Positions 1,078-38,067 of a DNA stretch of 38,067 nt are shown here, piece by piece. The position numbers and the translations under genes were made by a program. How positions within the stretch are numbered: the stretch's first letter is position 1; every line of letters starts with the position of its first letter. Source of the DNA: a virus (lineage: Duplodnaviria > Caudoviricetes); the IMG/VR virus record IMGVR_UViG_3300048579_000348, positions 1-38,067 of that record; one strand, given 5' to 3'. Under the pieces are notes generated by a model. That model was not told the DNA's origin, did no database searches, and saw only the letters and a program-made list of their open reading frames with translations.

Positions 1078-1133
1078 AAATATCTTATAAATTAATACAA
1101 TATTTGTTAATTTTAAATCAAACAATAATATTT

Positions 1134-1487
1134 ATGAAAAATTTATTTTTAGTTCTGATTCTCTTAATTCCCGTAATTCTACTCTCTCAAGATTTTAATA
1201 ATAGGCAAATTGAGGTTATCTCCGGATTGAGCAGCGAAATAATAAAAGATTCTGTTAAAGGAAAATATAATTCAACAACTTACTATTTTTACAACTGTGA
1301 AAAACGTAATTATGAACTTATCATGTCAATTTTAAACGACGCTTATGATATAAACGGAATTAATATAGATTATAATTATAGAACTTACAATAATAATGCT
1401 ACCGTTTTTAACGGTAAATATATCACAGCACAACTAATGAATTATGATGCCGAAATATTCTTTTTAATATTAACCTTTTGGGAGTAA
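1134..1487 (+). CDS. Hypothetical secreted protein (lysogenic accessory gene)
   Basis: ATG at 1134 gives MKNLFLVLILLIPVILLSQ, a Sec signal-like N-terminus; preferred over the TTG start at 1104. Confidence 0.65.
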   Translation: MKNLFLVLILLIPVILLSQDFNNRQIEVISGLSSEIIKDSVKGKYNSTTYYFYNCEKRNYELIMSILNDAYDINGINIDYNYRTYNNNATVFNGKYITAQLMNYDAEIFFLILTFWE

Positions 1488-1518
1488 CTTAATCTTTTAC
1501 AAATTAATAAATCTAATT

Positions 1519-1953
1519 ATGAAAAATTTATATTTATTTCTAATCCTTTCATTAATTTTATGTTCCTGCAGTAAGGATGATAATCCGGTTAATTCAAATA
1601 ATACAAATACAGGTACCAGTTGGAATTTAATTTATTCAAAGACAGACTCATTAAATTTCACGAACTCATTTTTTAGGATAAATGTGGGGTACGTTAATGC
1701 TGATTCTCATTCATATAAAAAGTTCAAAATAGAATATTTATATTGCGTGGATTCCGGTTTCACGGCATATTTGCGAAGTGGCTTTGGAGAATACCAATAC
1801 TGGAATTCTATATTTCAGGGAATAGATAATAAATGGCATGGTATTATTGATTCATCAACAATTACATCTTTGTTTCATTATGACTCTCTTTATTTTGGCA
1901 TAAGAACAAATAGAAATGTATATATTAAAAATATTTTGATTTCTGTGAAATAA
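1519..1953 (+). CDS. Putative lipoprotein (lysogenic accessory gene)
   Basis: MKNLYLFLILSLILCSC lipobox followed by an SKDDNPVNSNNTNT low-complexity tether. Confidence 0.8.
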   Translation: MKNLYLFLILSLILCSCSKDDNPVNSNNTNTGTSWNLIYSKTDSLNFTNSFFRINVGYVNADSHSYKKFKIEYLYCVDSGFTAYLRSGFGEYQYWNSIFQGIDNKWHGIIDSSTITSLFHYDSLYFGIRTNRNVYIKNILISVK

Positions 1954-4278: not shown

Positions 4279-5517
4279 TTATCGAGTTAATTTCAGCCAG
4301 TAATCCTGACCGTTTAAATTTACTTTTATCTTGACTGAATCAGTTACAGCATCGAAAGTTCTTGTTGTATCGATATTATTATACCTGAACTTTGTATTCG
4401 ACAAACTATAATTCGGTGTGATATAAGAAATAATATCCGCAAGAGCTGAACTGTGATAACGTCTTAATGAATGATTCAAGGTCGATGCATCAACCAAAGT
4501 AAACGTCTCATCTGCATATGATACAACCCCCTGGTACTCACCGTATAAATGTAAATTTACCTTACTTCCACTATCGAGAGTTAAAGTATGGATATCATAA
4601 GTAGTAAACGGAAATGTTCCTACAAGCCAAACTGAAGTAACTCCGTAGATTGTTGAAGTGCTCATCGTTAAACTTCCCTTGGATGCATCTACAGACATAC
4701 CTGAACCATATAAACCATTCCCGGTACTGGCGGCTCCTGAACCTCCGATAATTTTTATTTTATTCAGTGTAACGTGTCGCATCGGTCCCCAGTCGATTAG
4801 ATTTATTCCGATTGTAGTTATATTGCCTAAATAAAATTTTGCAATACCGCAGTCTCCAAAAGTTAAATCAGTTAAACCGAAGTTTCCCGGGTGGATTGTA
4901 AACAGATAATCGTGAGTACCATACCTGCCGTCAAATACCCACTTATTATCAAACGCAGTTGAATTGTCATAGTCATATCCACGGAAGGACCAGACAAATC
5001 CAGAAAAATCCTGGTCGTTATTAAGCTCTACGACTGAATTTCCTGTGAGTAAAGTATCGCAAACAACTATTGCTGAGTCATTTAAAATAGGAGTTGTAGA
5101 ACCTGCCCTTATCCAGGTATTCCATATACCGCTACCGGTGTTAGCGTATGTGCCTACCCACATTAAATTAACTCTTCCATTATGGAATCTATGACTCGGT
5201 TGCATACCGTTTATATACCTGCCTCCGTGAATTAGAATATTGCATTCATAAGACTTCATATCAGTTGGCAGCCAATTTAAAGCTCCTGTAATAGTTTTAA
5301 ACGGTCTTTGCCAGCTGAACCCATAAGAAGGGCTGTCATCCTTACCCCAGGGTGCTACCATAAGCCGGAATAGCTTTACATTCGCATCCCAGGGCGCTCC
5401 TACGAGCTTGTTTGCTTTTAAATTAAACTGGTCGATAGTGACCTGACCGTGTGACGGTCCGGAAAAAATTAAGATGCTGAAAAGCATCACAACGAGCATA
5501 AGAAATGTTTTTTTCAT
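4279..5517 (-). CDS. Tailspike / parallel beta-helix-like protein with an apparent signal peptide
   Basis: VAPWGKDD..GFSWQRPFKTITGAL motif typical of the N-cap of pectin-lyase-fold proteins; G/S/T-rich beta segments; last gene of the tail module. Confidence 0.55.
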   Translation of the reverse strand: MKKTFLMLVVMLFSILIFSGPSHGQVTIDQFNLKANKLVGAPWDANVKLFRLMVAPWGKDDSPSYGFSWQRPFKTITGALNWLPTDMKSYECNILIHGGRYINGMQPSHRFHNGRVNLMWVGTYANTGSGIWNTWIRAGSTTPILNDSAIVVCDTLLTGNSVVELNNDQDFSGFVWSFRGYDYDNSTAFDNKWVFDGRYGTHDYLFTIHPGNFGLTDLTFGDCGIAKFYLGNITTIGINLIDWGPMRHVTLNKIKIIGGSGAASTGNGLYGSGMSVDASKGSLTMSTSTIYGVTSVWLVGTFPFTTYDIHTLTLDSGSKVNLHLYGEYQGVVSYADETFTLVDASTLNHSLRRYHSSALADIISYITPNYSLSNTKFRYNNIDTTRTFDAVTDSVKIKVNLNGQDYWLKLTR

Positions 5518-18451: not shown

Positions 18452-19759
18452 TTAATTATTTGTAATATCCTCTTGTTTAATATCCTCAATAGCTACATCA
18501 GGATTTGCAGAAGCACTTGAACCACTACCATTAAGTGGAGCAAAAAGGTCATCAGCTCTCGGGTCCGTTGATGGCTCATCACCCTCCAGCTCCCTGATTT
18601 GATTTATAGTCTTAAGCGAATATTTACGTGCATTCTCATAAGACTTCAATTGCATTTCTCTATCGGTAGCAAATTCATAATCGAATTCACAAATCAGACG
18701 TTTATCATAATTGTCCTTAAGAAACTGTGTGAGAGGCGGAGCAAACACTAAACCCATAAAAGGCGAAATGTTATTTTCTATCCAGTTACGAAGTGCAGAT
18801 TTAGAATTGTTATAGTTGACATCATCGGAAATATTCATTACCGTTTTATCAGTGTCAAGTATAACACAAATCTCATCTCTTATTGCCTGGCGGGATTTCA
18901 CATAATCCATTTCTCGGTTATTCTCTGAAGTCTTTGCAACTTTAAGCCCGGCAGACAGAACCATCCCTTTGTGTGCATTATGAGAGCCTGCATATTGAGA
19001 CTGTAACTGATTATCTAACTTCTCTCTTGTCCTTTCAGAAGTACCTGCAGGTGTTTCAATGACAGTTCCAAGATTTGCGTAATTATCAAAGAATTTTCTT
19101 TGGGTACGGTTCATCAGGAAATCTATATCGAGCGTGAAGTTAAATGCACTAACCGGGGCATGTCCTAAAATATTAGATTCAGGATTCGGAATTTTAAAGC
19201 GGATCATATTTTCCGGAAGTATTTTAATGCTCTTTCCGTTTATAACACACTCATAAAACTCAATTGATGTGTTTTGAGAATTTAAATGAATTGTAACATA
19301 CTTGGCTGGTATCGGTGTTAAATTAACCGGAAGACTGGATCCTAAGAAATCTACCTTATCGACAGCAACATAACCATTACCTTTCAGGTCGCAATTGCAT
19401 GAGGAGAGGAATAATATTTCTTTAAAACTTTGCCCAAAAGAATTATTACGATTTATAAGCTGAAAGAACGGATGGTCTGCTTTTACTTCATTACGCTTTG
19501 ATTTAAACTCTTTGTAGAGATAAATATTCCCCTTGGTAATATTCATTGCACGTTTCTTAATGCAGGCATAAGCGAAGGATTTATAATGACTCTTTGTTTC
19601 TATTGAATCATAAAACCCGAAGCCCTTAATTGGCTGCCATACCTCCACTGAATCTGAATAGTCCTGCGTACTGGGGTTGTCTGAATTCCTCAGCTTTGCT
19701 CTCTCGAGCATCTCTTTGTGAATCTGTGATTTGAAATTATATGTTTCCTCAAGTGACAT
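18452..19759 (-). CDS. Portal protein, HK97 family
   Basis: AYACI, LKGNGY, IRFK.PNP...GHAPV, NYNNS and TINQIRELEGDEP motifs. Confidence 0.93.
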   Translation of the reverse strand: MSLEETYNFKSQIHKEMLERAKLRNSDNPSTQDYSDSVEVWQPIKGFGFYDSIETKSHYKSFAYACIKKRAMNITKGNIYLYKEFKSKRNEVKADHPFFQLINRNNSFGQSFKEILFLSSCNCDLKGNGYVAVDKVDFLGSSLPVNLTPIPAKYVTIHLNSQNTSIEFYECVINGKSIKILPENMIRFKIPNPESNILGHAPVSAFNFTLDIDFLMNRTQRKFFDNYANLGTVIETPAGTSERTREKLDNQLQSQYAGSHNAHKGMVLSAGLKVAKTSENNREMDYVKSRQAIRDEICVILDTDKTVMNISDDVNYNNSKSALRNWIENNISPFMGLVFAPPLTQFLKDNYDKRLICEFDYEFATDREMQLKSYENARKYSLKTINQIRELEGDEPSTDPRADDLFAPLNGSGSSASANPDVAIEDIKQEDITNN

Positions 19760-19771
19760 TCGCTATAAAAT

Positions 19772-19834
19772 AAAAAAGGCAGTATTTCAAAAGTCCGTAA
19801 ACTTTCAAAATACTGCCTCAGTATTCCTGCCGGC
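19772..19834 (-). terminator. Leader terminator with conserved upstream box (copy 1)
   Basis: GCCGGCAGGAATACTGA-GGCAGTATTTTGAAAGT-TTACGG-ACTTTTGAAATACTGCC-TTTTTT; long stem with G.U pairs, ending just before the portal ATG. Confidence 0.85.
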
Positions 19835-19874
19835 AGCAGGGTAAAAAAAACTTATGTATAGAACAAATTCTCTA

Positions 19875-19905
19875 CAAAATTATAAACTTTAATTTTTAAT
19901 TGCAA
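19875..19905 (-). promoter_or_regulatory. Putative promoter between terL and portal
   Basis: TTGCAA-N17-TAATTTTG (TAnnTTTG type). Confidence 0.6.
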
Positions 19906-19914
19906 TAGTTAATT

Positions 19915-21171
19915 TTAAAAGAACGTTATTGAGGGCTGTACTGTCATTTTAAAAGCAATAAGAGAAAGCATAAAAGCAACGGCATCATCTCCGTGTCCGT
20001 CCTTATCCCGCTCAATTCTGAATACAATCTTATTCGATGGTAGTATTACTTTCTTTACCCTGTGAAAACTATTCAGCAAATGCCTGTCATCATTGAATTT
20101 CAACTTACCGTCTTCCATTAGTTTTTTAGCGAATGTAACCATCTCAGCAAAGAAATCAACATTGTTAGTAAACACGCCATCGCAATTACTAAGCTCCTCT
20201 TCCAATTCTTCAGCCAGTTGATATCCAATAGATCCTTTATCGATAAGAATTTTTTCAACATCGTTTAAATAATAGTTGTCTCTTATCTTTTGCTTTTGAA
20301 CTCCAAACCTTTCGTTTTTCATTTCCTCTTTATGTTTCAAATAAAAAGTCCCGTCGATTTCAGTAGAACAAACCATACAGGAACTATCCTTGGTACGTCC
20401 GATATCAACACCGGCATTTACCAATCCTTTTTTTTCTGCTGGATTGTAATCTTCAACGCAGGTTTTTAAAAGCGAATAAGGAAAGAATGAATTAAGCTCG
20501 TCTACAAACTCACACATATATTCCTGCCTGAAGGATTCTGAATCCATAGAATCTTTAATCTCCTGAATGTCACACTGAAATCCTTTTGTCATAGCTTCGT
20601 AGATATCTATTTTATACGGTACATAATTCTTATACTTTTTCCTTTCTTCAAATGGCTTTAAAGCTTCGTGATAGATTTCCGAAAAAAGATTCTCAAGTCC
20701 GAGCGGAGTTGAATTTATAATGACTGAATAATTTATTCCGTCTTTACGTTTACGGGTTATCGATGGCATTACAGCTTCATATACCTTATGGTCTTCATTA
20801 TACAAAGCAAACTCATCAAGCAGGATGTCTCCGGAGAAACTTCTAATCGTATCAGGATTAGGAGGCAAGCAAACAATCGCTTTATTGTTACTAAATCTTT
20901 TCTCGGTTTGTGTATCGACAATTAATTTTAAATCTATGAGCGATGGAAGTTTTTTAAACGCTGTTATAAATTGCTCGATAAAAAACATTACTCTTTTTGT
21001 TTGCCTGAGGGAATTAGATACAATCAGCTGGTCTCTGTTTTCAAAGATGCACCGCTTAAGCATTTTATATGCGAATGCAAATGAGTAACCAATCTGACGG
21101 GCTTTAACGTTTATTTCAAAGCGGTTGGTTCGTTGAATAATTTCCTTCTGATATGGATAGAGAATTCCCAT
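19915..21171 (-). CDS. terL: Terminase large subunit
   Basis: LYPYQ, KARQIGYS (Walker A variant), LLDEFA (Walker B), STP, AGVDIG and HGDDAVA nuclease motifs. Confidence 0.95.
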   Translation of the reverse strand: MGILYPYQKEIIQRTNRFEINVKARQIGYSFAFAYKMLKRCIFENRDQLIVSNSLRQTKRVMFFIEQFITAFKKLPSLIDLKLIVDTQTEKRFSNNKAIVCLPPNPDTIRSFSGDILLDEFALYNEDHKVYEAVMPSITRKRKDGINYSVIINSTPLGLENLFSEIYHEALKPFEERKKYKNYVPYKIDIYEAMTKGFQCDIQEIKDSMDSESFRQEYMCEFVDELNSFFPYSLLKTCVEDYNPAEKKGLVNAGVDIGRTKDSSCMVCSTEIDGTFYLKHKEEMKNERFGVQKQKIRDNYYLNDVEKILIDKGSIGYQLAEELEEELSNCDGVFTNNVDFFAEMVTFAKKLMEDGKLKFNDDRHLLNSFHRVKKVILPSNKIVFRIERDKDGHGDDAVAFMLSLIAFKMTVQPSITFF

Positions 21172-21632
21172 TACTCGAACATTTCTTGAATTTCTTTTTT
21201 CGCCTGTTCTTTGTCTACAACCCTTAAATCAACTTCCTGTCTTTCCTTATACTTTGTAGGACGTCTGTTTTTAAGTAAAAATATTCCGGCGGTTGGATTC
21301 GGAGGCTCTGATTTCTTTATTTTCTTTACTACTTTGACTTCCGTCTTTCCATCAGCTCCACCCGGGATATATTCTAAATGCTCTTCGACATACTCATAAC
21401 CGACTGCACGTTTTTGCATAGCATTTTCAACTTCGACGTTTGCAACTACCTTCTGCCTTTTTATAGCCTCCGCTTTTTCCGTATTTTCGCTTAAATATTT
21501 GTAATACGTTGTTTTACCAATTCCGATATATTCGCATATTTCCTCATCGAGATATCCGAATTTTGCAAGCTCTAAAATCTTAGCCCAGTTATCCTCAATT
21601 ACAAAATATTTACTTTTCCGTCCCTTTTTCAT
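21171..21632 (-). CDS. terS: Terminase small subunit
   Basis: N-terminal HTH (DEEICEYIGIGKTTYYKY), KRAVGYEY, PPNPTAGIFLLKNR; abuts terL. Confidence 0.85.
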   Translation of the reverse strand: MKKGRKSKYFVIEDNWAKILELAKFGYLDEEICEYIGIGKTTYYKYLSENTEKAEAIKRQKVVANVEVENAMQKRAVGYEYVEEHLEYIPGGADGKTEVKVVKKIKKSEPPNPTAGIFLLKNRRPTKYKERQEVDLRVVDKEQAKKEIQEMFE

Positions 21633-22999
21633 ATTTCGTATTTTTTAATGTTCAAAGGCTTGCCGTTTAATTTTATATCGATGGACTTTTTATTTTCCCT
21701 GCAGAACTTTATATAACGCTTTACAATCACATCGCAGTACTTTGGATCCAGTTCCATCAGGAAAGCCCTTCTACTCATCTGGTCACATCCCAGGAGCGTA
21801 CTTCCTGAGCCTCCGAAGAAATCTAAAACAATGTCATTTTCCTTTGAATTTTTATTTATTGCCCGTTCCGGCAGCCTGACGGGTTTCTGTGTTGGATGAA
21901 CGTAATTTTGAGTTGCGTCTCTTTTTACATACCATACATCGAATAGCTCCTGAAAGTCCTTATAATCGAGATTAAAAGCGTCCTGCAGGTTATTTATGAA
22001 TTTATTACTGAAATGTGTCTTTCCTTTCTTCCATCCAAACAAACACGGTTCATAGCATCTATGATAATCCTGACCGCGTGAAAGTACAAATCCGTTTTTA
22101 ATCCAAATTATTGTTTGAGAAATATACCAATTAGCCTTTAAAAATGCCTGTCTGTTGATGTGTTGATTTCTGCCGGCGAACCACCAGTAAATACAAACCG
22201 AGTCTTTCGAAAACTTATAGAGATTCTCCAGGGCGGCCGTATAAAACTCAATGCAATCCTTATCCGATTTGTTATCGTTAAAAATCTTTCCTCCGGACTC
22301 ACCATATTTTTTTGAATCATAGCTTAAACCTCCAGGAGATTTATAATCCACGTTGTATGGCGGATCCGTGAAAATCAAATCAGCGAGTTCTTTATTCATT
22401 AGCTTTTTTACATCCTCCTCGAGGGTGCAATCTCCGTTCATGAGTCTATGCGGTCCCAGCTGATAGATATCTCCTTTTTTCGATATCGGTTTTTTGATAG
22501 ATTCATAAACCTCGTCTGAATTGAAATCGTCCTCTTTTACTTCCAGGGTGAAATTTTTCAGTTCGAAATACTCAAGATTAAAGTCCGGGATATCGATAAC
22601 GGATTTCACCTCCTCGAAAGTGAGTTTGTTTTCTTCCAGGTACTTCAGAAATCCCTCTTCTGTTACCTGAGCATAAATGCTTGAGTAAATCAGAACCAAT
22701 CTACTGGCTTCCTTGCGGTCCTTGCAGTTTATAAAATCTGCCCGAAACTTATCAGGGACCTTATACCCCTCGCTGATGAGATCCTTTAAAACAAGTATTC
22801 TGTGATATCCATCCAGGCAATAAAGCTTCTTACCGGACCTCCACAGCTTGAACGATTCTATGAAGTTATTTTTTATGATAGATTCTTTCAGTTTTGAATA
22901 TGCCTCCTGAGAGAGTTTTTTAAAAGAATCCGATTGAATGAACTCAAACTTTTTCCAGCTTACGAGTTCCGATTTAATGATGCGATTTTTTATGTCCAT
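21629..22999 (-). CDS. ParB-like N-terminal domain fused to an N6A/N4C DNA methyltransferase (beta class)
   Basis: LDGYHR (ParB-like), TDPPY, HPTQKP and DFFGGSGST motifs. Confidence 0.92.
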   Translation of the reverse strand: MDIKNRIIKSELVSWKKFEFIQSDSFKKLSQEAYSKLKESIIKNNFIESFKLWRSGKKLYCLDGYHRILVLKDLISEGYKVPDKFRADFINCKDRKEASRLVLIYSSIYAQVTEEGFLKYLEENKLTFEEVKSVIDIPDFNLEYFELKNFTLEVKEDDFNSDEVYESIKKPISKKGDIYQLGPHRLMNGDCTLEEDVKKLMNKELADLIFTDPPYNVDYKSPGGLSYDSKKYGESGGKIFNDNKSDKDCIEFYTAALENLYKFSKDSVCIYWWFAGRNQHINRQAFLKANWYISQTIIWIKNGFVLSRGQDYHRCYEPCLFGWKKGKTHFSNKFINNLQDAFNLDYKDFQELFDVWYVKRDATQNYVHPTQKPVRLPERAINKNSKENDIVLDFFGGSGSTLLGCDQMSRRAFLMELDPKYCDVIVKRYIKFCRENKKSIDIKLNGKPLNIKKYEI

Positions 23000-23010
23000 A
23001 TTAATAAATT

Positions 23011-23076
23011 AAAAAAGGCGAAACCTGAAAACCAATATCATTGATTCTCAAATTTCGCCTCAGTATTCCTGCCAGC
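23011..23076 (-). terminator. Leader terminator with conserved upstream box (copy 2)
   Basis: GCTGGCAGGAATACTGA-GGCGAAATTTGAGAATCAA-TGATA-TTGGTTTTCAGGTTTCGCC-TTTTTT; ends just before the methyltransferase ATG. Confidence 0.85.
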
Positions 23077-23116
23077 GATTTATTATTACAAAATTTCCTT
23101 AAGAACTATTTTAAAA

Positions 23117-23329
23117 TTAAGTTATCGTTGATTCCAAAATTAATATAGCTTTTTCTAAAGAGGAAATAGTTTTCACGATATCAACCTTTCTCATAACTTC
23201 TGTTGTTGATGGTTTCATTGCCTCCGGATAACTATCAACTTCAAGTGCGGTGTTTCTTTTTTCTGACTCTTCCTTTAGCTTTTCCAACCGGTACAACTCG
23301 TTTTTTAATATCTGTATTGCATAATTCAT
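23117..23329 (-). CDS. Hypothetical helical-hairpin protein (paralog of 30621-30803)
   Basis: MNYAIQIL...LEKAILIL. Confidence 0.7.
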   Translation of the reverse strand: MNYAIQILKNELYRLEKLKEESEKRNTALEVDSYPEAMKPSTTEVMRKVDIVKTISSLEKAILILESTIT

Positions 23330-23344
23330 TATTGTTCCTTTTTA

Positions 23345-23375
23345 CAAAATTATATAAACTTTTTTTTAATTACAA
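23345..23375 (-). promoter_or_regulatory. Putative late promoter
   Basis: TTGTAA-N17-TAATTTTG; spacer closely resembles that of the promoter at 19875-19905. Confidence 0.6.
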
Positions 23376-23603
23376 TTTGTTTAATGCTTTTTTCTTATCG
23401 GTCGCTTTTAATATCTGGTTAATTTTTGTCCTTTCGACCTTCCCGTCTTTGATTATGATTCCGACCTCACCGAAAGCGTATAGAGATTTTTTTATACGTT
23501 TGATTTCATTAAAAGCTAAATAAAGGTTGTCAATCTCATCCTTTTCGAATTCAAACTCTTCTCCACAGATTTTTATTTTGTCTTTTACAGTTAATCCAGC
23601 CAT
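23370..23603 (-). CDS. DUF2292/YezD-like small protein; candidate late-gene regulator
   Basis: FGEVGIIIKDGKVERTKI matches the remembered (F/Y)G-x-V-x-I-x-(I/V)-x-DG-x-V pattern; last early gene before the late promoter. Confidence 0.6.
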   Translation of the reverse strand: MAGLTVKDKIKICGEEFEFEKDEIDNLYLAFNEIKRIKKSLYAFGEVGIIIKDGKVERTKINQILKATDKKKALNKL

Positions 23604-23848
23604 TGTATAAATATAATCTCCGCTTTAAAGTTATTGTTTTTATAGAATCGAATACTTGTAATTAAATATTTTGCAGGCTTACCGTCTTTATTAAATATTA
23701 TATATTCCTCTCTTTTCGGTTTTTTAGGACCATAACCCCTGACGTGGATGCATAACAAATACGGTTTATCTCTTTCTTCAACCTCGATATGGTGTTTTCC
23801 TTCCTTTGAATAATCGTGAATAACTTCTGAATCACTTTTCTTTTCCAT
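23591..23848 (-). CDS. Hypothetical protein
   Basis: 85-aa ORF in operon orientation, overlapping the next gene. Confidence 0.6.
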   Translation of the reverse strand: MEKKSDSEVIHDYSKEGKHHIEVEERDKPYLLCIHVRGYGPKKPKREEYIIFNKDGKPAKYLITSIRFYKNNNFKAEIIFIQWLD

Positions 23849-30620: not shown

Positions 30621-30803
30621 TTATTTAATTGCTTTTAAGATTTTTACTGCTTTTTCTAATTCTTCTATTTTTCGATTTAAACTTTGAGTTTTTTCCTTTT
30701 TCGTTTTTCCGTAGTTTGTAAACGGTGTATGGTATTTCACGTGAACTTTATCCGCCTCAAGTCTTGCAATATTCCATTCTAATATTTCAATAGCATATTT
30801 CAT
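30621..30803 (-). CDS. Hypothetical helical-hairpin protein (paralog of 23117-23329)
   Basis: MKYAIEIL...LEKAVKIL. Confidence 0.7.
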   Translation of the reverse strand: MKYAIEILEWNIARLEADKVHVKYHTPFTNYGKTKKEKTQSLNRKIEELEKAVKILKAIK

Positions 30804-37305: not shown

Positions 37306-37387
37306 TAATACAATTGTATAGTATTGTATTTCTAAACTATACAAATATAATACAATCATATTATTTTGTCAAGAGAAATAATACAAT
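37306..37387. promoter_or_regulatory. Lysis/lysogeny switch: candidate operators and early promoter
   Basis: TAATACAAT at 37306, 37348 and 37379; AATACAAT-N8-ATTGTATT palindrome at 37307-37330; leftward TTGACA-N17-TATATTTG at 37372-37342. Confidence 0.7.
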
Positions 37388-37407: not shown

Positions 37408-38067
37408 ATGGAAAAAACACCCTGGAGACAACAATTCGGGGAGAGATTAAGGAAAGCAGCCGAAGAACTCTTGGGAGGAGTTGACGGGCTTGCGCAAATG
37501 TGGGGCTCAAAAACAGGAGCCGGTTTATATGGTTATTTTCGTGGGGACAGGATTCCCGGCGGAGAGCTGCTTGAAAAGCTCGTTAACAAAGTAAATATTG
37601 AATGGCTTCTCACCGGAGAAGGATCTATGAATATTCCATTACCGATTACAAAATCAGAAAGAACTTTTAAAGTACCTGTTTTTGGTTCTGTCCTTTGCGG
37701 ATCACCGGCGCCGCTCTGGGATAAGGAAGAAATAAAAGAATACATTGATTTGCCTGATTTAATTAAGTACAAATATTCTTTCGGTTTAATAGCTAAAGGA
37801 AATTCTATGATACCGTATATTAATCCTGGGGATTATCTTATTTGCGTTGACAATCCGGAATTAATAAAAGACGGTCGCGCAGTCGTTACAATTTTTAAAG
37901 GGACTATAGATAATAATGAAGTTAACGCTAAATTGATAACAAGAGACGTTAATAAAGGTATTGTTACTTTATATTCGATTAACACAAAATATCCCCCGGT
38001 TAACTATAACGAAGATGAGATTTTGAAAATTTATAAATTAATTAAAATAATAAGGGACGTTAAATGA
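37408..38067 (+). CDS. cI: CI-like repressor (XRE HTH + S24 autopeptidase)
   Basis: HTH ending VNIEWLLTGEG, VLCG cleavage site, GNSM catalytic Ser, NAKL catalytic Lys; divergent from the early operon. Confidence 0.93.
   Translation: MEKTPWRQQFGERLRKAAEELLGGVDGLAQMWGSKTGAGLYGYFRGDRIPGGELLEKLVNKVNIEWLLTGEGSMNIPLPITKSERTFKVPVFGSVLCGSPAPLWDKEEIKEYIDLPDLIKYKYSFGLIAKGNSMIPYINPGDYLICVDNPELIKDGRAVVTIFKGTIDNNEVNAKLITRDVNKGIVTLYSINTKYPPVNYNEDEILKIYKLIKIIRDVK

Follow-up and report, generated by a model that had tools for sequence, protein, structure and literature searches.

A candidate RNA antitermination switch pairing a DUF2292-like protein with twin hairpin-terminators at the late genes of a provirus

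The window analyzed here is the whole of the 38,067-nucleotide (nt) provirus record IMGVR_UViG_3300048579_000348, in which integrase, lysis, tail, head, packaging, replication, recombination, and cI-like repressor modules were recognized and the minus strand carries nearly all genes. At issue are a 77-amino-acid (aa) open reading frame (ORF) with similarity to the DUF2292 (YezD) family and two intergenic elements, gate 1 and gate 2, located upstream of the portal gene and of the DNA methyltransferase, terS, and terL genes, respectively (Table 1). The 77-aa protein probably binds a hairpin in the leader RNA of each gate and allows read-through into the late genes, thus forming an antitermination switch of the kind known from LicT and its ribonucleic antiterminator (RAT), in the role that Q has in phage lambda; both binding and read-through are what we infer from sequence comparison and structure prediction.

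Table 1. Features of the proposed switch and of the genes behind it (positions in the window)
Feature	Position	Strand	Basis
77-aa DUF2292-like ORF, last early-operon gene, proposed antiterminator	23370..23603	-	Pfam, profile, AlphaFold
Gate 1 terminator-like hairpin of 19 pairs with UACG loop and U6; 8 nt at its start common with antiterminator hairpin	19772..19818	-	Folding
Gate 1 antiterminator hairpin including box 19815-19831; lower stem 7 bp, upper stem 3 bp, GG/A internal loop; -13.8 kcal/mol	19811..19838	-	Folding
Gate 2 terminator-like hairpin of 21 pairs with U6; 6 nt at its start common with antiterminator hairpin	23011..23060	-	Folding
Gate 2 antiterminator hairpin including box 23057-23073; lower stem 5 bp, upper stem 3 bp, GG/A internal loop, apical loop 5 nt; -8.9 kcal/mol	23055..23078	-	Folding
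Promoter-like site TTG-N20-TAATTTTG, over stop codon of 77-aa ORF	23345..23375	-	Pattern; same motif after homologous gene in L244
Promoter-like site TTG-N20-TAATTTTG, 40 nt before gate 1	19875..19905	-	Pattern; 88% over 34 nt to L243 promoter-like site
Same-type promoter-like site beside cI-like repressor gene; inferred start of early operon ending in 77-aa ORF	37342..37372	-	Pattern
70-aa ORF in leader between promoter and gate 2	23117..23329	-	ORF list; no counterpart at this place in L244
Portal gene, first of head-tail-lysis genes behind gate 1	18452..19759	-	Pfam/PHROGs annotation
Genes behind gate 2: DNA methyltransferase 21629-22999, terS 21171-21632, terL 19915-21171	19915..22999	-	Pfam/PHROGs

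The two elements share a 17-nt box, GGCAGGAATACTGAGGC, present in two exact minus-strand copies (19815-19831 and 23057-23073), with no further copy in the window within 3 mismatches and 0.05 expected from shuffles. The box is the longest dispersed exact repeat of the window, two within-gene repeats aside, and a repeat of at least 17 nt with a guanine-plus-cytosine content of at least 50% arose in 0 of 40 Markov shuffles. Starting at the AGGC of each box, terminator stems of 19 and 21 pairs end in a U6 tract, 12 nt before the portal ATG and 11 nt before the methyltransferase ATG. The minus-strand folds reach -33.2 and -28.8 kcal/mol (z -7.9 and -7.2 versus shuffles), making the gates the strongest two of three hairpin-plus-U-tract sites below -16 kcal/mol in the whole window, whereas the plus-strand folds are weaker (-24.9 and -13.7 kcal/mol), internal loops replacing the G.U pairs. 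The initial annotation, made from the letters alone, had described the shared box, the AGGC-based stems with U6 tails 11-12 nt from an ATG, G.U pairs confined to the minus strand, and stems that diverged in sequence while structure and box were kept; each of these points was confirmed here.

The box is the top of a larger hairpin (24-28 nt in all), formed when sequence 5′ of it pairs with the beginning of the terminator 5′ arm. A lower stem of 5-7 base pairs (bp) is followed by a GG/A internal loop and by an upper stem of 3 bp that closes a loop of 5 nt. The conserved structure thus extends beyond the mini-hairpin CAG-GAATA-CTG proposed previously, and the mechanism first put forward is amended accordingly: the predicted switch is an antiterminator hairpin whose lower stem takes up the beginning of the terminator 5′ arm. 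The antiterminator and terminator folds are mutually exclusive, overlapping by 6 and 8 nt at the two gates. Five copies of this GG-type hairpin were compared, namely the two window gates and the loci L243, L244, and L265 described below; two of them are nearly identical, and the structure was proposed from these same sequences. In all five, the antiterminator hairpin is the free minimum-free-energy structure of its own stretch (-8.9 to -13.8 kcal/mol), while the whole leader is more stable in the terminator state, by 5-9 kcal/mol (7.1 and 6.4 at the two window gates). Their alignment has 92% of cells paired and 3 of 10 pairs changed on both sides, a level reached by 1 of 500 shuffles, and slid controls are 24-51% paired. 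The 5′ strand of the lower stem, the shared strand, and the terminator 3′ arm vary together across copies, and the register of the box to the terminator is fixed, while its distance to the promoter is variable (16, 25, 40, and 268 nt). Judged by these sequence and folding data, the anatomy of the element is that of a terminator/antiterminator switch.

The 77-aa ORF represents a real gene family, with four relatives at 31-58% identity. Its sole Pfam match is DUF2292 (PF10055; E 0.048, 13.4-13.7 bits), below the 22-bit gathering cut-off, and none of the four relatives matches Pfam DUF2292. A profile was built from 45 Pfam-positive DUF2292 proteins of sampled Bacillota, Bacteroidota, and Elusimicrobiota and one Pseudomonas genome, with five second-repeat loci left out; among 593 six-frame segments of the window, it ranks the 77-aa ORF first (E 0.003), and three of the four relatives come next. 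Profile-profile alignment with hhalign gave a probability of 88, P 3e-6, and a score of 31.0, compared to a maximum of 16.9 in 60 column shuffles and 9.9 for the reversed control, over a match of only 19-20 columns. By these comparisons, the protein is a remote DUF2292-like protein and not a member by the Pfam cut-off; the DUF2292/YezD-like motif originally assigned to 23370-23603 thus stands as a profile similarity that is real but remote, and not as a Pfam assignment.

AlphaFold models, compared unsuperposed, have the same helix-Gly-beta-hairpin topology in the 77-aa protein (helix 21-39, strands 43-52 and 55-65; predicted local distance difference test [pLDDT] 71) and in a DUF2292 protein (helix 14-33, strands 37-44 and 47-55; pLDDT 83), with an extra N-terminal hairpin in the window protein. 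A homodimer formed via residues 45-51 is predicted with a score of 0.56 (best control 0.00; pLDDT at least 72; runs agreeing in at least 96% of contacts), the mark used being reached by 20 of 30 solved pairs and 1 of 23 single chains. Searching the window model against 48,161 chains gave a best Z of 3.6 with no chain standing out; the DUF2292 model likewise gave a best Z of 3.1 with none standing out, and no Foldseek E was under 0.1 for either model. DUF2292 clusters in the ESM Atlas, at a feature score of 0.80 and a template modeling score of 0.50, are leads only. Some Bacillota proteins (L357-L361) carry two DUF2292 repeats per chain, without the strict downstream motif, an arrangement that fits a dimeric working unit. 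Pseudomonas OscA is a presumed further member of DUF2292.

Gene and element were found together in other genomes; of the two computational outcomes that the initial annotation had named as refuting it, a lack of DUF2292 similarity and a lack of co-occurrence of box and gene, neither was obtained. An exact-box scan of IMG/VR returned one contig and a separate protein-family scan one of 108 candidates, and both were the same contig, L243. Over the 11.3 kb compared, L243 matches the window only in the 77-aa ORF (49%) and the portal (23.5%), and not in the terminase genes; the element before its portal, 3.2 kb away from the 77-aa homologue gene, is 94% identical to gate 1 across 67 nt. UNCG tetraloops (UACG, UUCG) cap the terminators of gate 1 (19793-19800, minus strand) and L243. 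The sole metagenome match of 264 candidates, L244, is a closer phage with a 59% identical homologue of the 77-aa protein; homologue, promoter, hairpin (with U-A for U-G), and terminator follow in direct succession, with no 70-aa ORF. No homologue of the 77-aa protein was returned by a single-protein IMG/VR scan, a GTDB contig alignment scan (0 of 170), or tblastn of INPHARED. A DNA sequencing run with a variant in which gate 2 and the promoter are unchanged is possibly from the same sample and was not counted.

These phages also bear on whether the gates are simply leaky terminators of the ordinary type, with the box a relic of a duplicated intergenic cassette and no switch involved. Duplication can give two copies per genome, and recent exchange could explain the 94% identity between gate 1 and L243. 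The two window stems have nevertheless diverged while the box and the three-way pairing were retained; among 119 chance-match loci recovered with a loosened box as a negative control, 1 was followed by a hairpin under -8 kcal/mol, and the element is in none of 20 distant terL loci (250 kb; terL relatives were only 22-30% identical). This explanation is therefore considered very unlikely.

The association extends to cellular DUF2292 genes. A related hairpin lies within 200 nt downstream of 15 of 45 Pfam-DUF2292 cellular genes, compared to 0 of 47 in each of two controls (reverse strand; upstream), and a U-tailed terminator hairpin overlaps 11 of these 15 copies. An alignment of 14 cellular hairpins keeps 93% of pairs with 9 both-side changes, a value matched by none of 500 shuffles. 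The descriptor GYYGR - C stem-loop G - ARGY plus a U-tailed terminator, composed with the window box in view, has the two gates as its only matches in the window and also recovers 11 of the 15 cellular copies. From the opposite direction, DNA-side pattern scans with structure filters yielded 14 distinct hairpin-terminator records, of which 8 (L152, L172, L184, L223, L243, L265, L337, and L339) have a small same-strand gene upstream whose similarity is clear (E no higher than 2e-3, or direct homology). No candidate gene accompanies three matches that have the terminator but not the upper stem. Some adjacent ORFs, chosen partly by eye, were used to widen the profile, and a profile of 10 element-adjacent ORFs alone ranks the window ORF third (E 0.41). 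The element-adjacent 49-aa ORF of L339 (4534-4680, plus strand) matches PBSX XtrA (E 0.006) and DUF2292 (E 0.03), both below cut-off, and XtrA may belong to the same wider family as DUF2292.

The cellular copies also inform the proposal that the hairpin acts on the next gene by way of translation or RNA stability and not through termination. Both U-tracts end 11-12 nt before start codons, and since a Shine-Dalgarno-like word precedes only 13 of 43 starts in the window, local structure could tune initiation. Arguing for termination are the U6 tracts on both stems, the variable distance from stem to next ATG among copies (6 to 94 nt), and the U-tailed hairpins overlapping 11 of 15 cellular copies, and control at the level of translation is accordingly regarded as highly improbable.

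Several results weigh against the antitermination reading. Besides the sub-threshold Pfam score, the unmatched relatives, and the short hhalign alignment, the strict motif is not near 30 of the 45 DUF2292 genes, and a second promoter in L243, before terS/terL, is without a box. Among the 14 DNA-selected records, 4 (L123, L205, L209, and L333) have a weak top-ranked candidate (E 0.03-0.25) and in 2 (L148 and L398) the adjacent ORF is not ranked first; the four weak candidates count little because 1 of 80 chance loci and 4 of 20 background loci also give E < 0.05. A Pfam search that covered 48 of 120 loci recovered DUF2292 from only 2 of the 12 phage records with an element or terminator and from none of the 36 chance records. 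When 14 canonical DUF2292 hairpins were made into a covariance model, gate 2 scored only 10.8 bits (E 0.62) and gate 1 was not among the 6 matches (E up to 5); on eight related loci, the model recovered five GA-type elements (E 1e-6 to 0.11) and left L243, L244, and L265 unlisted. Finally, the co-occurrence of gene and element indicates a shared module and is not proof of direct binding.

Because the canonical model misses the GG-type copies, the window hairpin pair is, by sequence, a divergent subtype. When 199 segments were searched with the window-family profile, the best match (E 7.5e-4) was the ORF beside the GG-type box of L265, a locus found via DNA alone; the canonical profile does not rank this ORF first. 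This is a hint that protein and hairpin subtypes go together. This pairing is not established, since L398 (GG) is ranked by neither profile and phrog_23283 is common to L148 (GG) and L205 (GA). The phrog_23283 protein is also encoded upstream of the element in L148 (6061-6219, minus strand) and L399 (6759-6926, minus strand) and constitutes another candidate subfamily. L265 is an Elusimicrobia contig, in which the GG-type hairpin-terminator and small ORF (5001-5298, minus strand) lie directly before an 810-aa primase-like gene, with an excisionase-like ORF and a type I restriction-modification locus nearby (labels by eye); it is a candidate for a switch on a satellite-like element that would gate replication rather than capsid genes. 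In the sampled Bacteroidota loci L374-L387, inspection by eye showed a variant hairpin downstream of several DUF2292 genes; it ends in AGGA a short distance ahead of a start codon, has no evident terminator, and may be a version that works on translation.

It might also be that the RNA switch is real and is opened by another factor, such as a host RNA-binding protein or other phage ORF, the 77-aa gene traveling with it for another reason or serving as a cofactor. Several small early ORFs are without a family, the canonical hairpin model does not significantly recognize the window copies, and all five GG-type boxes contain CAGGA, which resembles the CsrA site. On the other hand, the 77-aa gene is the only non-structural window ORF that L243, an otherwise different phage with the same element, has in common with the window, the gene-hairpin link recurs across phyla, and GGA is not kept in the wider family. 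Such a factor is considered unlikely, and the 77-aa protein remains the preferred antiterminator.

The pattern TTG-N19-21-TAnnTTTG, given as the Bacteroidetes RpoD consensus in two reports (10.1101/172254; PMC9723704), has 4 matches in the window compared to 2.9 by chance, a count that is not above chance and so counts with the points against listed above. Three of the four lie on the coding strand at intergenic starts: 37372, beside cI, 23375, and 19905. The similar promoter predicted upstream of each element was found in both cases (19905-19875 and 23375-23345), but the second lies 268 nt from its box, with the 70-aa ORF, which the initial annotation did not mention, in between. A sigma-70 consensus scan (15 sites versus 20 expected) was uninformative for a Bacteroidetes-type promoter. 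The 70-aa ORF is a weak paralogue of the early ORF 30621-30803 (34% identity, E 3e-5) and would be transcribed ahead of the gate 2 terminator, perhaps in the lysogen. The sequence AAATTTTG (23091-23110, minus strand) lies about 13 nt ahead of gate 2 and is a one-mismatch copy of the -7 promoter element, with spacing similar to that in L244 and no TTG 19-21 nt upstream; it is perhaps a promoter remnant predating the arrival of the 70-aa ORF.

Under the proposed mechanism, both late promoters would be read by the host housekeeping sigma factor, in the lysogen too, and such host-type promoters would need a brake, supplied by the terminators. In the nascent RNA, the antiterminator hairpin would form first and then be displaced by the terminator 3′ arm, giving termination by default. 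Upon induction, the early operon would be transcribed from the promoter beside cI, its last gene making the 77-aa protein, whose predicted homodimer would clamp the hairpin at the GG/A internal loop and the apical loop before the terminator 3′ arm invades. The clamped hairpin would leave the terminator without its base, with the residual stem 6-8 nt short of the U-tract. Because each gate would be opened locally, two operons would need two boxes, and because the 77-aa gene lies upstream of both gated promoters, there would be no positive feedback and control would come from cI. The ORF order and the promoter at 23375-23345 agree with the lambda-Q position claimed for this gene. Likewise as claimed, no Q, RinA/ArpU, sigma, or NusG gene was found among 58 ORFs (Pfam and PHROGs) or 20 small ORFs (NCBIfam), many of the small ORFs having no assignment.

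This position, together with the promoter over the stop codon, could instead suggest that the protein acts on DNA or RNA polymerase, by Q-like processive antitermination or by promoter activation, the box being a DNA or loading site; the weak fold matches of the DUF2292 model also include four MADS-box DNA-binding chains (Z 2.3-2.7), which reflects a common arrangement only. Q loads at a promoter-proximal pause beside a DNA element, whereas the box lies 16-268 nt downstream of the promoter in fixed register to the terminator. Covarying pairs and one-strand G.U pairs point to RNA, and a processive factor would need no box per terminator. Action on DNA or polymerase thus appears improbable, and antitermination through the RNA hairpin remains the favored reading.

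With respect to the wider setting, the cI-like repressor relatives that carry organism names are from Ignavibacteria and Bacteroidetes (4 named among 39 matches), making a Bacteroidota host likely. The plus strand encodes both the integrase (1-1077), at one end of the provirus, and the cI-like repressor (37408-38067), at the other, and the attachment site would therefore fall between repressor and integrase. CheckV completeness of the record is 54%, though all modules were found. Between the integrase and lysis genes, counter to the main direction, two ORFs (1104-1953, plus strand) have signal-peptide-like N-termini, one with a lipobox-like Cys; they have no family match, a 34-nt repeat is common to their starts, and they are candidate lysogen-expressed surface proteins. 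Where the lysis genes meet these plus-strand genes, a third minus-strand hairpin with a T-run and no box (1949-2006, -16.9 kcal/mol) is likely the end of the late transcript.

No description of antitermination by DUF2292 and a hairpin was found in the literature searched, which left most subscription papers and supplements outside, and DUF2292, YezD, and OscA are not mentioned in a 2025 review of RNA-binding antiterminators. The function of yezD (PMC6385201) and oscA (PMC2996968) is listed as unknown. If true, the mechanism would provide a function for the DUF2292/YezD family, an RNA-level route of late-gene control for temperate phages without a recognizable Q, RinA/ArpU, or sigma gene, and a minimal switch of one 77-aa protein and one 25-nt hairpin. 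The locus is a good test case because it offers two natural gates with different stems along with a natural variant series (L243, L244, and L265). More broadly, the evidence appears evenly balanced on a wider reading, in which the DUF2292-like proteins would form a widespread, undescribed class of dimeric, stand-alone antiterminators that bind RNA, with many more members than the Pfam model shows, and would replace Q, RinA, or a late sigma factor in temperate phages of several phyla; protein and hairpin subtypes would have diverged together, and an Ignavibacteria/Bacteroidota-type pair would here gate two late operons separately.

Compared to known systems, the window protein resembles DUF2292/YezD in its predicted helix-Gly-beta-hairpin, in profile similarity, and in the related hairpin-terminator that follows many family genes; it differs in its extra N-terminal beta-hairpin, which bears a conserved KxCG-EFEF motif, and in a C-terminal QxxK for ExxEKxR, and in the RNA hairpin GG/A and a 3-bp upper stem take the place of the GA/A and 4 bp of most cellular copies. 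Another stand-alone RNA-binding antiterminator encoded just upstream of its terminator is HutP of Bacillus subtilis (PMC12591593), but HutP is a histidine/Mg-activated hexamer of other size and fold that destabilizes the terminator at NAG repeats, with no competing hairpin of the window type. As in the lambda Q system (pR'/qut/tR'), the last early gene of the window is next to a promoter of host type, and a terminator there would hold the late genes off until the protein is made. However, no Q family of Pfam, PHROGs, or NCBIfam is matched here, and while Q acts processively after loading at a DNA element on paused polymerase, the conserved window element is a downstream RNA structure repeated per terminator. 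An Rfam search of 19600-23700 gave 4 chance-level matches only, none near the gathering score.

A close parallel in mechanism is with BglG, SacY, and LicT, for which PMC5393181 describes a RAT hairpin that shares 6-10 nt with a thermodynamically favored intrinsic terminator and is held by a small dimeric protein. Similarly, the window hairpins share 6 and 8 nt with their terminators and are less stable than the terminator state, and a dimer is predicted. In contrast, the 77-aa protein has no CAT or PRD domain (Pfam, NCBIfam), RAT is 29-33 nt with two internal loops whereas the window hairpins are 24 and 28 nt with one loop, and the RAT system is controlled by phosphotransferase system phosphorylation where control here would come from the timing of synthesis. 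Thus, the window system, which no Rfam family matches, works like BglG/LicT-RAT in its proposed mechanism without being a member and sits like Q without being Q: it would be the kinetic competition of LicT and RAT (PMC5393181), placed where lambda has Q.

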